Origin: Alphaproteobacteria bacterium
Lineage (GTDB): Bacteria > Pseudomonadota > Alphaproteobacteria > Rhizobiales > Amorphaceae
Length of the DNA stretch: 64,000 bases
NCBI GenBank assembly: GCA_030431335.1
Contig: JAUIJH010000003.1
Location: forward strand, 5,496-69,495
Direction of reading: 5' to 3'
Each line of letters opens with the position of its first letter. Within the stretch, counting starts at the first letter, position 1. The position numbers were made by a program, and so were the translations under genes. The notes under the pieces were generated by a model. The model saw nothing but the letters and a program-made list of their open reading frames with translations, was not told where the DNA came from and did not search any database. Shown piece after piece: positions 1 through 60,549 of this stretch.

Positions 1-1127
1 ATGTGGCTGGCGGCATAGGCGAGGTAGTAGATCGAGCCGACACCGCGCACGCCGTAGGCCGCCACCACCGCTCGGTCGCGGCCGACGATGTCGGTGCCGA
101 GCATCGATACCCAGCCCGCGAGGGGGCGGACGAGCACGATCAGCGCCGCTGCGATGATCACGTGGCTGAGCGTGAGGTCGGGCAGGAGCAGCGGCAGCGT
201 GCCGCCGAGCGTCACCAGGATCAGCGCGGTGAGCCCATGCTCGATGGCCTCGGAGAAGTCGTGCAGCCGGCGGTGATAGGCGTGTGCCGGCCGGATGCCG
301 CGCAGCGTGAGGCCCATCACGAAGACGGCGATGAAGCCGTAGCCCTCGAAGAGCTCCGTGGCACCATAGCAGAACAGGATGCCGGCCAGCGCGATGACGC
401 CCGACGCCGTGTTCGCCAGCGGCGCCTGGCGCGGCACCACGAACAGGATGTGGCCCAGCAGCCAGCCGAATCCCCACCCCAGCACGGCGCCGACGCCGAT
501 GCGGTAGACGAGGTCCCGCAAGATCCACTCGGTGCCCCATTGGAGGGGGTCGAACCCGTTGGCCGCGACCAGGAGGCCGAGATAGACGAACGGAAAGGCG
601 AGGCCGTCGTTGAGGCCGGCCTCGGTGGTGAGCGTCAGGCGGACGGGGTGCTCCTTGCCCTCCAGCGGCGGGCCCACCTGGACATCGCCGGCCAGCACCG
701 GGTCGGTGGGCGACAGCACCGCGCCCAGCATGATCGCGCCGGCAATCGTCATCGCGCCGACGAAGTAGCCGAGCAGGGCGACGGCGAAGATGGTGAGCGG
801 CATCGCGATCAGGAGGAGCTGGAGCGTCGGGCGCCAGCGGGTGAAACTGTAGATCTTGTCGATCTTCAGCCCGGTGCCGAACAGCGCCGCGATCACCGCG
901 ATCTCGCTGGCGTACTCCCAAAGCTTGGGATTCTCGCGCGGGTCGATCGCAGCGGGCATCCCCGGCACCAGCGAAAAGCCGATCGCGCCGAAGATGATGA
1001 GGAGACCCGACGCGGCCGGTTCCCGGTTGGAGACGAAGCGCGGCACCCAGTAGGCCAGGATGACGAGGCCCCCCACCATGGCGATCAGCACGTGGTAGGG
1101 GTCGAACGCGAAGAATGCGTCTTCCAT
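1..1127 (-). CDS. Cation:proton antiporter (CPA1/NhaP-like), 3' end runs off the window
   Basis: Not in the ORF track (no stop inside the window). Hand translation from ATG 1127 (SD GGAGGTGA): MEDAFFAFDPYHVLIAM..., hydrophobic helices, LSPTDPVLAGDVQVGPP, LTTEAGLNDGLAFPF, YGVRGVGSIYYLAYA. Confidence 0.9.
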   Translation of the reverse strand, partial: MEDAFFAFDPYHVLIAMVGGLVILAYWVPRFVSNREPAASGLLIIFGAIGFSLVPGMPAAIDPRENPKLWEYASEIAVIAALFGTGLKIDKIYSFTRWRPTLQLLLIAMPLTIFAVALLGYFVGAMTIAGAIMLGAVLSPTDPVLAGDVQVGPPLEGKEHPVRLTLTTEAGLNDGLAFPFVYLGLLVAANGFDPLQWGTEWILRDLVYRIGVGAVLGWGFGWLLGHILFVVPRQAPLANTASGVIALAGILFCYGATELFEGYGFIAVFVMGLTLRGIRPAHAYHRRLHDFSEAIEHGLTALILVTLGGTLPLLLPDLTLSHVIIAAALIVLVRPLAGWVSMLGTDIVGRDRAVVAAYGVRGVGSIYYLAYAASH

Positions 1128-1427
1128 GGCCTCACCTCCCTCGCGTCGTGGGAGGGGACGCAAGGGGGGGAAGGCCATGGCGAACTGCCGGCAACGCGCG
1201 GGCGGCGCGGCGGCGGTTGTCCGCGCGCAGCGGGGGAAATTGCGGGTTCGTGGGGATGGGGTGGCTCCTTGCCCTCGGTTTGCCGTGCCTAGGTGAACGC
1301 GGCGGGCACGGTTCGGTTGCGCCGGCGGCCCATGGCCGCGACGTCGCGGGGGCGCCGTGGTGCGCGCGGCGGCGACCGATGCGGGCGAAATCGGCGCGCC
1401 AAGGCCGCAGGCGCGTGTGGGCGGAGC

Positions 1428-58130: not shown

Positions 58131-59173
58131 CCGCGCTCCTGGAAACCGACGACCTCGAGGTCCACTACAAGAAAAGCGGCCTCCTGGGCGGCGAACGGGA
58201 GGTGGTGCGCGCCGTCGACGGCGTGTCGATCCGCATCCGCCAGGGAGAGTGCCTCGGCCTCGTGGGCGAATCGGGGTGCGGCAAGTCCACCTTGGGCCGC
58301 GCCCTCTTGCGCGCGGCGCCGATCACGGGCGGCAGCGTCCGTTTCGGCGGCACCGACATCACGCGCCTGTCGGGCCGCTCGCTGCGCACCGTGCGCTCGC
58401 GGATGCAGATGGTGTTCCAGGATCCCTACGGCAGCCTCGATCCCAAGATGCCGGTGGAGGAGATCGTCGGCGAGCCCATCCGCACACATCAGCGCGTCGG
58501 CCGTGCCGTCCGCCGCACCCGCGTCGGCGAGCTCCTGGAGACGGTCGGCATCGATCCGGCCCGCATGGGGGACCGGCCGCACCAGTTCTCCGGCGGCCAG
58601 CGCCAGCGCATCGCCATCGCCAGAGCCCTCGCGGTGCGGCCCGAATTCATCCTGTGCGACGAGGTGACGTCCGCGCTCGATGTCTCGATCCGGGCGCAGA
58701 TCCTCAACCTCCTCAAGGAACTGCGGCAGGAGCACGGGCTCACGTTCCTGATGATCTCGCACGACCTCGGTTCGTTGCGCCATCTCAGCGACGACATCGG
58801 CGTCATGTATCTGGGGCGCATCGTGGAACTGGGGCCGGCCCGCGCCGTGTTCGACGCCCCGGCCCATCCCTATACGCAGAGCCTCCTGTCGGCGATGCCG
58901 CTGCCCGATCCCGACAAGGAGCGGGCGCGCAACCGCATCGTCCTCAAGGACGACGTGCCCTCGCCGCTCGCCATCCCCAGCGGCTGCCGCTTTCACACCC
59001 GCTGCTTCCTGCGCGACCGGCTCGGCACGCCCGACCGCTGCGCCGCGCAAGAGCCCGCCCTGCGCCCCCTGCCGGACGGGCGCACCGTCGCCTGCCATTT
59101 CGCCGAAGAGGCCGCCGCCGCGCCGAGCCGGCCGGCGAGCCAACCCGCGCCGGAGACCGACCGATGCCCCTAG
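58127..59173 (+). CDS. ABC ATP-binding subunit DppF/OppF-like
   Basis: [24 protein letters not shown]. Confidence 0.95.
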   Translation: MTALLETDDLEVHYKKSGLLGGEREVVRAVDGVSIRIRQGECLGLVGESGCGKSTLGRALLRAAPITGGSVRFGGTDITRLSGRSLRTVRSRMQMVFQDPYGSLDPKMPVEEIVGEPIRTHQRVGRAVRRTRVGELLETVGIDPARMGDRPHQFSGGQRQRIAIARALAVRPEFILCDEVTSALDVSIRAQILNLLKELRQEHGLTFLMISHDLGSLRHLSDDIGVMYLGRIVELGPARAVFDAPAHPYTQSLLSAMPLPDPDKERARNRIVLKDDVPSPLAIPSGCRFHTRCFLRDRLGTPDRCAAQEPALRPLPDGRTVACHFAEEAAAAPSRPASQPAPETDRCP

Positions 59174-60549
59174 ACGCCCCCGCCGTTCCCACCCTCGACC
59201 CGCAGAAGACCGCGCTGATGGTCGTCGACATGCAATATTTCGACGCGAGCCGAGACTGGGGCGAGGGCCGCACGGCCCAGGACCTCGGCGTCATCCGCTA
59301 TTTCGACGAGTATTTCGCGCAGATCGACACCATCACGCCGGTGATCGCCGATCTCATCGCCACATTCCGCGCCAAGCACATGGAGGTGATCCACATTCGC
59401 GTGGCCGAGCGGACGAAGGATTCGCGCGATGTCGGCCTCAAGCAGCTGGTGCGCGGCCTGATCGTGCCCTCCGGCAGCAAGGAGGCCGATTTCCTCGAGG
59501 GCCTGGAGCCGGCGGCGGACGAGATCGTCATCTCCAAATCGGCCTCGGGCGTGTTCGCGGCGACGGACCTCCACCGCATCCTGCGCAATATCGGGATCGA
59601 CACGCTGGTGTTCGTCGGGACCTCCACGGGCGGCTGCGTGCAGAGCGCCGTCTACGACGCGACCGACCTCGGCTACCGCGTCATGGTGGTGGAGGACGCC
59701 TGCGCCGATTCGACGTTCGCGAGCCACGCGGCCTGTATCGCCAACACGAAGAAGCAGGCGACCTCCGTCGTCGCGGCGGCGGCGCTCGGCGAGGCGCTTG
59801 CGGCTGCGGCGGACGCGGACCCGGCCCAGCGCAGCGGCATCGAGCGCGTGCGGCCCTACCTGCCGACGCGCCCGTTCCTGCCCAACACGCCGGGGGGCGG
59901 CGCGGCGGAGCCCTACTCCACCATTTTCGGCCCGGCCATCCAGCAGGCGCTGACCCCTGCGACGACCGCGCTCGTGGTCATCGACGCGCAGCGCCTGACC
60001 TGCGACCCGGCCTTCCGCAACGCCGGCCTGCAACCGCCGAACGCCGATTTCGAGGGCTTTTATGACCGCGCCGCAGACGCGCTGCCGCGGATGGGCGAGC
60101 TGCTGGGGCTGTGCCGCACGGCGGGGATCGCCGTGTTCCACGTGCGCACCGCCGGCAATCTTTCCGAGGGGAGGGATCTGGCGCCCAAGCGCCGCGCGTT
60201 GGGCCTCGCGCTGGCTGCGGACGACGAGGCCGCCGCCTTCATGCCGGAGGTGACCCCCGCGCGGGGCGAAGCCGTGCTCAACAAGCCCGCCAGCAGCGCC
60301 TTCAACGGCACCGCGCTCGACCAACTCCTCGCCAACGCCGGCGTCGATACGGTGATCCTCGCGGGTGTCTCGGTGGATTCCGGCATCGAATCCTCGATGC
60401 GCAGCGCCGGCGATCGCGGGTACGGCTCGGTCATCGCCATCGACGCGTGCGTTGCCGCCGCGTCGGTCGAGGCGCAGCTTGCCGGGGCGGAGCGCGGCAT
60501 CGCCAACGTGCGCACCGTGGCCGAGATCGCCCAGGCGCTCGCGCGTTAG
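59164..60549 (+). CDS. Tandem two-domain isochorismatase/cysteine hydrolase
   Basis: Domain 1: VVDMQ, SKSASGVF, GTSTGGCVQSA. Domain 2: VIDAQ, NKPASSAF, GVSVDSGIESS. Confidence 0.88.
   Translation: MPLDAPAVPTLDPQKTALMVVDMQYFDASRDWGEGRTAQDLGVIRYFDEYFAQIDTITPVIADLIATFRAKHMEVIHIRVAERTKDSRDVGLKQLVRGLIVPSGSKEADFLEGLEPAADEIVISKSASGVFAATDLHRILRNIGIDTLVFVGTSTGGCVQSAVYDATDLGYRVMVVEDACADSTFASHAACIANTKKQATSVVAAAALGEALAAAADADPAQRSGIERVRPYLPTRPFLPNTPGGGAAEPYSTIFGPAIQQALTPATTALVVIDAQRLTCDPAFRNAGLQPPNADFEGFYDRAADALPRMGELLGLCRTAGIAVFHVRTAGNLSEGRDLAPKRRALGLALAADDEAAAFMPEVTPARGEAVLNKPASSAFNGTALDQLLANAGVDTVILAGVSVDSGIESSMRSAGDRGYGSVIAIDACVAAASVEAQLAGAERGIANVRTVAEIAQALAR

Follow-up and report, generated by a model that had tools for sequence, protein, structure and literature searches.

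A probable accessory catabolic supercluster built around a DUF4438 gene pair and fed by Opp-type importers in an alphaproteobacterium

We examined a 64,000-bp stretch of the genome of an alphaproteobacterium of the family Amorphaceae (assembly GCA_030431335.1, contig JAUIJH010000003.1, positions 5,496 to 69,495 of the forward strand; hereafter the window, with positions counted from its first base), and found that it carries a substrate-specific catabolic cluster fed by Opp-type importers, with an unusually large, conserved and wholly unassigned enzyme set. We consider it probable that the 44 genes g2 to g45 (1428-50291) make up one accessory catabolic supercluster, the 'DUF4438 regulon', likely acquired by horizontal transfer, and that the region 50584-60549 is a separate operon. 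An original prediction, made from the letters of the same DNA, had described four parallel modules, each with its own importer. However, modules A, B and C turned out to be pieces of one supercluster, and only module D is independent. What this window adds is the multi-importer architecture, the physical link of g2-g9 and the HyuA/B sets to the DUF4438 cluster, and the separation of module D from it.

Since the DNA of the window is about 70% G+C, raw lists of open reading frames (ORFs) were useless, and the genes were called across the whole window by third-position-GC frame plot and then named by Pfam. This gave 57 genes, nearly all of which Pfam names. The 53 genes at 1428-60549 comprise four importers, two GntR/FCD regulators and 31 enzymes or enzyme-like proteins, and no ribosomal, replication, cell-envelope or central-metabolism gene was found among them. 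Each importer is complete, with one family-5 substrate-binding protein (SBP; Pfam SBP_bac_5), two BPD_transp_1 permeases (one OppB-like with BPD_transp_1_N, the other OppC-like with OppC_N) and two ATPases carrying ABC_tran and oligo_HPY. The SBP_bac_5 scores of g10, g20, g35 and g46 ranged from 256 to 311 bits, and all four systems are of the Opp/Dpp type (TC 3.A.1.5) in their SBP, permeases and ATPases. These results confirmed what the original prediction had observed, namely four complete Opp/Dpp-type systems and no housekeeping genes, the rest of 1428-60549 being enzymes or GntR regulators.

Importer A consists of g10 to g12 (SBP and two permeases, 9593-13043, + strand) and the divergent g6/g5 (OppD- and OppF-like ATPases, 4650-6712, - strand). 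Importer B consists of g20 to g18 (SBP and two permeases, 17202-20721, - strand) and the ATPases g29/g30 (29062-31127, + strand), and importer C of g35 to g37 (SBP and two permeases, 35527-39018, + strand) and the ATPases g41/g42 (42751-44783, + strand). Importer D is encoded by g46 to g48 (SBP and two permeases, 50584-54040, + strand) and the ATPases g52/g53 (57126-59173, + strand). Tight spacing and 4-bp overlaps define five transcription blocks: g3-g2 and g6-g5 are divergent from g4 and g7-g14, g22-g16 is divergent from g23-g30, the 15 genes g31-g45 lie on one strand with gaps of at most 100 bp, and g46-g54 form a further block. The genome has ~50 family-5 SBP genes in 5.6 Mb (285 contigs), from which ~0.54 would be expected per 60 kb, with a Poisson probability of ~0.002 for four or more. 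The importer enrichment in this 60-kb stretch is real, though such systems are very common in this genome and extremely so in the genus; they are clustered elsewhere too, with three on contig C225. The genome also holds ~40 Opp-type permease pairs and 31 TctA-like matches, and the organism invests very heavily in binding-protein-dependent uptake.

The centre of the supercluster is a pair of DUF4438 genes, g23 (DUF4438-A, 22484-23359, + strand) and g24 (DUF4438-B, 23402-24316, + strand). With g23 as the query, 80 loci were fetched, and all 57 window proteins were compared with them by tblastn; presence was counted over the 51 loci with full 10-kb flanks. The 80 loci come from Alphaproteobacteria, Chloroflexota, Gemmatimonadota, Truepera, and metagenome-assembled genomes (MAGs) of Pleurocapsa and Acidobacteriaceae. 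A core recurs in at least six phyla (in Alphaproteobacteria, Chloroflexota, Gemmatimonadota, Deinococcota, Cyanobacteria and Acidobacteriota), and all of its components are present in this window. It consists of DUF4438-A/B (g23 and g24, in 51 of 51 loci), a Ldh_2 dehydrogenase with Gln in place of His44 (g25, 24327-25400, + strand; 46 loci), a class I/II aminotransferase (g27, 26560-27738, + strand; 45 loci), a VOC/glyoxalase-fold protein (g33, 33950-34426, + strand; 41 loci), a family-5 importer and a GntR/FCD repressor with its operator ATTGTCGACAAT. Here importer B is the canonical importer of the cluster (its genes g18 to g20 occur in 27-34 of the 51 loci, g20 in 34), and the repressor is g22 (21677-22366, - strand), which is divergent from the DUF4438 pair and keeps this position across loci. 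DUF4438-A and -B are always paired, the A stop codon abuts or overlaps the B start in most loci, and the pair is translationally coupled.

Around this core, the alphaproteobacterial clusters carry a further, fixed set of enzymes. These additions include two oxidoreductases of the GFO/IDH/MocA family (g17, and g40 at 41714-42754, + strand, found in 27 of 51 loci), several SDRs, an NAD-dependent epimerase/dehydratase-family protein (g21, 20718-21680, - strand, named by Pfam) and a GMC-family FAD oxidoreductase (g4, 3061-4626, + strand, Pfam). The SDR gene g16 lies with g17 (15385-17180, - strand, Pfam), and both are syntenic across phyla; g7 and g8 (6723-8320, + strand, Pfam) encode two more SDRs. 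A DegT/DnrJ/EryC1-type aminotransferase, of the kind acting on keto-sugars or cyclitols, is encoded by g2 (1428-2567, - strand; Pfam 324 bits, PseC-like below the cut-off), and a Rid-family protein by g3 (2571-2963, - strand). The hydrolytic additions include a cyclic amidohydrolase (g28, 27735-29153, + strand; allantoinase-, ErtD- or dihydroorotase-like, below the cut-offs), a PuuE-allantoinase-like hydrolase of the polysaccharide-deacetylase fold (g13, 13040-13942, + strand), a metal-poor M24-fold hydrolase (g26, 25387-26550, + strand) and an AstE/AspA-family deacylase (g34, 34429-35427, + strand; DoeB-like, far below the cut-off). There are also two Amidohydro_1 proteins (g9, 8284-9552, + strand, similar to a Caulobacter Xaa-Pro dipeptidase below the cut-off; g39, 40488-41714, + strand, Pfam), an M32 (Taq-type) carboxypeptidase (g31, 31209-32747, + strand, Pfam), an M14 carboxypeptidase (g45, 48603-50291, + strand) and an ATP-dependent hydantoinase A/B (HyuA/B) pair of the lactamase or oxoprolinase family (g43 and g44, 44780-48525, + strand, Pfam). 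The list is completed by a ureidoglycolate-lyase-like protein (g14, 13939-14424, + strand, recognised by Pfam and NCBIfam) and a cytoplasmic glycoside-hydrolase (GH)-like TIM barrel (g38, 39030-40478, + strand). A second class I/II aminotransferase in the window, g32 (32758-33939, + strand), is 55% identical to g27.

The typical alphaproteobacterial order is g20- g40- g21- g22- g14- g13- g34- g33- g32- g31- | g23 g24 g25 g26 g39 g27 g38 g28 g29 g30, where a minus sign marks the opposite strand. It was seen in Devosia, Rhizobium straminoryzae, Aureimonas, Tropicimonas, Pelagibacterium and others, at 55-75% identity. The g13 orthologue is within the DUF4438 cluster in 15 of the 51 full-length loci, g14 is within it in other alphaproteobacteria, and g45 in Chloroflexota and Devosia. 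Wider layouts were obtained from four extended genomes. One 83.5-kb contig of Microvirga arvi reads g43 g44 | g2- g3- | g4 g7-g12 g33 g34 g13 g35-g39 g27 g40-g42 ... g16-g20 | g23-g25 g29 g30, which is the island of the present genome with its genes rearranged. In a Methylobacterium MAG, g43 g44 g22 g23 g24 abut g2-g13 and g35-g40. In Devosia sp. YR412, the canonical cluster is followed by g45, g9, g9', g8, g7, g4, g3, g2, g44 and g43, with no extra importer. Both the g43/g44 pair and the syntenic group g2, g3 and g4 were found in Microvirga, Methylobacterium, Devosia and Alsobacter, the former linked to the cluster. In 4-5 genomes the DUF4438 cluster is accompanied by a g4 orthologue (50-55% identity), and g7 is 71-72% identical in Microvirga and Devosia. 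The importer C genes g35-g37 accompany g38-g40 in Microvirga arvi and the Methylobacterium MAG and are absent from Devosia-type clusters. Thus the enzymes are roughly constant while the importers vary from one (Devosia) to three (here and in Microvirga arvi), which indicates that the enzyme set is the conserved unit. As a side observation, the g4-type GMC gene beside the DUF4438 cluster of Devosia aurantiaca (G612:C3:370656-372127) lies in two frames (query residues 6-143 and 137-484) and is probably a frameshifted pseudogene.

These layouts bear on a second explanation, in which four independent substrate-specific operons accreted side by side in a variable region and share no common pathway. 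The clustering of Opp-type systems elsewhere in the genome and the independence of module D agree with it, as does the divergence of the SBPs, which are mutually 24-33% identical among importers A, B and C and 24-42% across all four. Moreover, most DUF4438-carrying genomes have no module A, and g4-like GMC genes in genomes without DUF4438 are paralogues (45-49% identity) in other contexts and not markers of module A. However, the combination of A, C, B and HyuA/B recurs on one contig in Microvirga arvi and in the Methylobacterium MAG, in Devosia the enzymes of module A and HyuA/B come after the canonical cluster with their importer missing, and g13, g14, g38, g39, g40 and g45 stand within a single-importer cluster in many genera. 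We therefore consider independent accretion unlikely, and a single supercluster from g2 to g45 the better description.

The interpretation given in the original prediction is partly supported by these comparisons. It had named a lack of conservation of the module gene sets as an argument against itself; the synteny search showed that these sets are conserved elsewhere (in 80 DUF4438 loci, and in Microvirga antarctica for module D), so this argument fails. Its assignment of g13 and g14 to module A and of g38, g39, g40 and g45 to module C was not upheld, since these genes are within the single DUF4438 cluster in other genera. It had further stated that each importer is accompanied by its own amidohydrolases, peptidases, aminotransferases and oxidoreductases. 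This holds only loosely: aminotransferases and oxidoreductases are lacking in module D, and peptidases in module A.

The closest known relative of the DUF4438 pair is TM1086 of Thermotoga maritima (PDB 3DCL, 3N99), a single-copy structural-genomics protein without assigned function. g23 matches it over its full length (E=2e-62) with both Pfam domains, PF14505 and PF20999, and a DUF4438 model (pLDDT 88) superposes on it at a TM-score of 0.87-0.88; a fold search with this model matched no other solved fold and so offered no hint of a mechanism. The four His of DUF4438-A, invariant in this copy, are shared with TM1086. DUF4438-B replaces them with Cys, Ser, Gln and Tyr, and does so in the same way across phyla. 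In contrast to the single-copy TM1086, the family here is an ancient A/B pair inside a catabolic cluster. We found no paper mentioning DUF4438 in the literature library searched, and TM1086 appeared only in a crystallisation-methods paper. A similar case is g38, which has at least 120 homologues at 68% identity or more, called 'hypothetical protein' where named at all, and no Pfam or NCBIfam model. Its predicted structure (pLDDT 62) resembles GH-like TIM barrels (Cwp19/GHL10, GH164, GH42, PgaB) at a TM-score of ~0.4; since the model is mediocre and the similarity low, we call it 'GH-like' and assign no family.

Several other enzymes have altered active sites. In g26, comparison with a solved prolidase showed that the first and second Asp are replaced by Gly and Glu and the last Glu by Ile, so that three of five metal ligands are missing, while the His and the middle Glu are kept; all 24 of 24 orthologues have the pattern AGIG / HAESG / R(T/L)I(N/D). 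g25 has PG(Q/H)GQGV in place of the family SHG, with Gln at the equivalent of AllD His44 in 67 of 67 orthologues, and keeps the His116 equivalent. In E. coli AllD, His44 is invariant in the family and is one of two candidate catalytic histidines (PMC3527362). The Rid protein g3 has HRPPH where RidA has PAR, with His at the Arg105 position in all orthologues. Archetypal RidA imine deaminases have the Arg105 equivalent in the active site, so g3 does not belong to the archetypal type. In module D, the M20-fold protein g51 (55690-57129, + strand) has GRGAAAKG without the bridging Asp and EGAEILGS in place of the EGEEE-type motif, thus lacking this and other ligands, and its Microvirga antarctica orthologue has the same residues at both motifs. 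The isochorismatase-fold protein g49 (54054-54722, + strand) has Thr for the nucleophile Cys and Arg for Lys. g54 (59164-60549, + strand) is a fusion of two isochorismatase domains: domain 1 is a cysteine hydrolase with Asp/Lys/Cys in essentially all of 121 homologues, and domain 2 keeps Asp/Lys and has Ala, Gly, Thr or Ser for Cys in 121 of 121.

Since the altered residues are fixed across phyla, these proteins are derived subfamilies under selection and not decaying genes. The remodelled active sites are conserved family traits. Each substitution that the original prediction had reported in the M20, M24, cysteine hydrolase, Rid and Ldh_2 proteins proved real and conserved in orthologues. For DUF4438-B, the replacement of the four His was likewise correct, but calling these positions canonical overstated the case, as the family has no defined catalytic residues. 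Its proposal of an undescribed catabolic system, other than ordinary peptide uptake, was also supported: no NCBIfam equivalog was found among 30 proteins, no paper mentioning DUF4438 was found, and the altered sites are family traits.

The cluster could nevertheless be read as ordinary peptide nutrition, with four general di-/oligopeptide importers and standard peptidases. All four systems show the classic Opp/Dpp architecture, the solved structures nearest to the SBPs include DppA, GsiB and AppA, and M32, M14, M24, M20 and Xaa-Pro-dipeptidase-like folds are present. However, the peptidase-fold proteins g26 and g51 are missing some of their metal ligands, and most of the partners are non-peptidases (two MocA-type, one GMC and three SDR oxidoreductases, DegT, the GH-like barrel, Ldh_2, VOC, HyuA/B, cyclic amidohydrolases and DUF4438). 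The gene set is held together across phyla under a dedicated GntR operator, and the genome already has ~50 such importers. This explanation is, in our view, very unlikely. The result also cautions against taking the 'peptidases' and 'oligopeptide ABC transporters' of islands like this one for a system of peptide nutrition.

To compare the enzymes with known pathways, 30 proteins (28 enzymes, the SBP g20 and DUF4438-A g23) were scanned against NCBIfam. None of them reached an equivalog cut-off, and on this basis we rejected an assignment to the ureide, ectoine, creatinine, caprolactam or biuret pathways. The nearest models, all below cut-off, were a PseC-type sugar aminotransferase for g2, inositol or levoglucosan dehydrogenase for g17 and biuret hydrolase for g54. 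For g28 the nearest were AllB allantoinase or the hydantoin-propionate amidohydrolase ErtD, for g25 sulfolactate or ureidoglycolate dehydrogenase, and for g14 ureidoglycolate lyase. The purine ureide pathway (PuuE/AllB, AllA, AllD) shares four folds with g13, g28, g14 and g25, which stand in one cluster. However, the scores were 373 bits against a cut-off of 424.6 for g13 (TIGR03212), 311 against 357.85 for g28, 79 against 230 for g14 and 140-147 against 356-496 for g25; g25 has Gln at the invariant His44 (PMC3527362), and allantoate amidohydrolase and ureidoglycine aminohydrolase are missing here. Ectoine degradation follows the same logic: its M24 hydrolase DoeA, AstE-type deacetylase DoeB and aminotransferase DoeD have counterparts here in the metal-poor M24-fold ring hydrolase g26, the AstE/AspA deacylase g34 and the aminotransferases. 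This candidate was also rejected (50 against 613 bits for DoeA with g26, 114 against 403 bits for DoeB with g34); the aminotransferases here are of another class, and there is no DoeC. The folds of the creatinine/N-methylhydantoin pathway (creatinase, the HyuA/B N-methylhydantoinase and N-carbamoylsarcosine amidase) are all in the window, as M24 (g26), HyuA/B (g43, g44) and isochorismatase-fold amidases (g49, g54), but here they belong to different operons.

The importers and HyuA/B also recall the opine loci of Agrobacterium. In the aga-type loci (pAt2788b, NZ_CP116686.1), a family-5 importer adjoins HyuA/B under a dedicated regulator, as g41/g42 are followed by g43/g44 here, and a non-peptide N-conjugate is imported in a substrate-specific manner via a 'peptide' transporter. 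A related explanation is therefore that the cluster degrades mannityl-opine-like or sugar-amino-acid (Amadori) conjugates and lactams, as the aga/moa/moc/soc systems of Agrobacterium do. g44 is 52% identical to a HyuB on Agrobacterium plasmids that lies beside FAD oxidoreductases, an ABC importer and an octopine/nopaline-dehydrogenase-family gene, and MocA-family and GMC oxidoreductases are present in the window. AccA and AgaA (agrocinopine and agropinic-acid binders) are among the solved relatives of g20 and g35. However, peptide, glutathione and nickel binders match these two SBPs at similar scores, and the structure matches do not discriminate cargo classes. The closest curated model for g43/g44 is caprolactamase (579 and 261 bits against a 1000-bit cut-off). 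Pfam scans found no FAD-dependent opine oxidase, opine-dehydrogenase-family gene or deglycase in the cluster. Unlike the Agrobacterium loci, the cluster is chromosomal, contains 44 genes and extends over six phyla, and it reaches into Chloroflexota, Gemmatimonadota, Deinococcota and marine Rhodobacterales, groups that one would not expect to meet crown-gall opines. A search of 72,556 plasmids with DUF4438-A gave no match and thus no support for an origin on a plasmid, whether of the opine type or another. Opine or Amadori catabolism as such is thus quite improbable, while opine, Amadori or ureido-sugar cargo would be compatible with the enzyme mix.

Within the supercluster reading, the three importers would take up one family of nitrogen-rich, peptide-like conjugates and not ordinary oligopeptides. 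In the cytoplasm, amino-acid or acyl groups would be removed by carboxypeptidases and deacylases (M32, M14, AstE, Amidohydro_1). A cyclic amide, ureide or lactam would be opened by HyuA/B, the cyclic amidohydrolase, the PuuE-like protein and the metal-poor M24 protein, and a sugar- or cyclitol-like moiety would be handled by the DegT aminotransferase, the GH-like barrel and the oxidoreductases of the MocA, GMC and SDR families. What is left, an unusual amino or keto acid, would be converted to central metabolites by the aminotransferase, Ldh_2, VOC and DUF4438-A/B proteins, of which the last two would act as a heteromer with one His-bearing, presumably catalytic, and one His-less subunit. A pathway intermediate would release the GntR repressor from its operator. 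To name a specific substrate class from this enzyme mix would be doubtful, with at best a rather small chance of being right. In a bolder form, the supercluster would be a complete and so far undescribed pathway, ~30 enzymes in all, for a nitrogen compound that is widespread in the environment. This compound would be an amino-acid conjugate with a ring and a glycosyl or cyclitol group, the DUF4438-A/B heteromer would be a new enzyme class of unique fold at the committed step, and the three importers would serve three natural variants; we regard this as possible, somewhat short of an even chance.

The 44-gene cluster stays together from Chloroflexota to Alphaproteobacteria, and none of its enzymes is assignable to a known reaction. 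This combination points to an abundant natural substrate whose degradation is absent from metabolic maps. The cluster also provides a handle for function discovery on DUF4438, the Pfam-less GH-like barrel, the His44-less Ldh_2, and the metal-poor M24 and M20 proteins. Several carriers are available in culture (Devosia sp. YR412, Microvirga arvi BT689, Rhizobium straminoryzae SM12 and Aureimonas jatrophae DSM 25025), and together with the conserved repressor/operator pair they make the question directly testable.

The operator itself was found as a perfect palindrome, ATTGTCGACAAT, at 22404-22415 between g22 and g23. Of 49 loci examined from four phyla, 38 have this sequence, unchanged or with a single mismatch, at a distance of 40-200 bp upstream of the DUF4438 genes. 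Across the 5.6-Mb genome there are just two perfect and eight one-mismatch copies. The sole other perfect copy is on contig C280 (position 6211), with no window-gene paralogue within 8 kb, and could mark a further regulon member of a different family. Near this copy and the eight one-mismatch copies, no paralogues of window genes were found except a weak g34-like gene and paralogues of g41/g42 (55-58% identity) on contig C138. Within the window, 22 matches to ATTGTCGACAAT were found at three mismatches or fewer, compared with 10 +/- 3 in shuffled sequences. Related sites occupy four more promoter gaps: ATTGTCGCCAAA (31177-31188) upstream of g31, ACCGTCGACAAT (6745-6756) in the divergent g6/g7 promoter, ATGGTCGACTAA (3001-3012, three mismatches) in the divergent g3/g4 promoter, and ATTCGCGACAAT (50321-50332, two mismatches, of uncertain relevance) in the 293-bp gap before g46.

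A second GntR/FCD regulator, g15 (14682-15380, + strand), is 34% identical to g22. Upstream of it, a possible operator, GATAGGTCGACC (14492-14503), was read directly from the sequence. The sites at 3001, 6745 and 14492 share TATA-N2-GTCGAC and may belong to g15. The longest ORF of g7 starts at 6723 and that of the divergent g6 at 6712, with 10 bp between the two. Since the g7 ORF covers the site at 6745 and the SDR domain starts only at residue 42, the true start of g7 is probably at 6831-6849. The start of g6 is probably at 6682, at a GGAGGGG Shine-Dalgarno sequence.

We next consider the origin of the region. In a sample of 201 genomes of the same order, DUF4438 was found only in this one, and it was absent from the three congeners and the two family members examined. 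The left flank (a sugar ABC system, a xylose-isomerase-like gene and the Na+/H+ exchanger g1) shows 77-78% nucleotide identity to congeners. From g2 to the contig end, there is no congener match except ABC paralogues; when 20 kb of the window was compared with congeners, dozens of paralogous Opp ATPase and permease genes were found per genome and nothing else. g1 (1-1178, - strand, Pfam Na_H_Exchanger, 78% identity to the congener gene), whose 3' end is off the window, is thus core-genome flank outside the cluster.

Several observations weigh against a single, horizontally acquired supercluster. The G+C content is not deviant (69.6%, compared with a genome value of 68.8%), the window has no tRNA gene, and no integrase was found among the ten flank ORFs scanned. 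Neither the window (by Pfam) nor these ten ORFs have mobility genes, and the right end of the accessory region is beyond the contig. Hence, of the features of a classical genomic island, absence from close relatives was found, and deviant composition, a tRNA or integrase/mobility genes were not; a horizontal origin rests on the absence from relatives and the cross-phylum spread. Module A is the least secure part. Its orthologues are in only 5 of 24 DUF4438-carrying genomes, which makes it an optional add-on, and the operator-like sites at its promoters are weak (2-3 mismatches). At the corresponding module A promoters of Microvirga, Methylobacterium and Devosia, the motif was not found at two mismatches or fewer, and the sites here are no more than suggestive of a joint regulation of module A and the core. 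In addition, every proposed biochemical step rests on family membership well below curated cut-offs, and the divergent SBPs could equally fit three unrelated substrates, with genes that simply accreted.

Adjacent to the supercluster, g46-g54 (50584-60549) form, by gene order and comparison with other genomes, a separate catabolic operon of nine genes that is not linked to DUF4438. Besides importer D, whose genes g46 to g48 are 63-72% identical to an operon of Microvirga antarctica, it encodes g49, a PTE-family (phosphotriesterase- or lactonase-like) hydrolase (g50, 54719-55693, + strand, Pfam), g51 and g54. The nine genes (g54, g46-g53) are collinear also in Microvirga antarctica, at 53-72% identity, where they come after a LysR gene and have unrelated neighbours. 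A metagenomic relative with 83% identity has exactly the same end of the operon as this genome, with other genes behind it. The g54 fusion has ~175 homologues, was absent from the 24 DUF4438-carrying genomes examined, and stands in yet another context in a Trueperaceae genome. A search with g51 against 400 class-wide genomes gave only three distant homologues (31-36% identity). Module D would import a different amide, ureide or lactone compound and hydrolyse it by means of one intact cysteine hydrolase domain and the PTE-type hydrolase, together with partner proteins that are Cys-less or metal-poor. Genes of the M20 fold with 29-33% identity to g51 adjoin the DUF4438 cluster, upstream of the g16 orthologue, in Microvirga arvi and a Truepera MAG, and module D is absent there.

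The 293-bp gap before the operon (50291-50584) has a high AT content by the standard of this genome (local GC ~0.64 over 2 kb), and several short repeats occur in it, including TTGCGTGAAA twice. It is probably the promoter and regulatory region of module D. Unlike in Microvirga antarctica, no LysR gene adjoins module D here.

On the other side of module D, g55 to g57 (60550-63512, - strand) encode a TctA, TctB and TctC tripartite tricarboxylate-type transporter, which lies in the accessory region and has no congener match. The accessory DNA past 60549 continues on contig C128 (locus L115, 3574-8936) and holds, besides TctABC, an alpha/beta hydrolase, two Asp/Glu/hydantoin racemases and another Amidohydro_1 gene. 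This DNA likewise has no congener match and looks like a further hydantoin-type utilisation set fed by the tripartite transporter.

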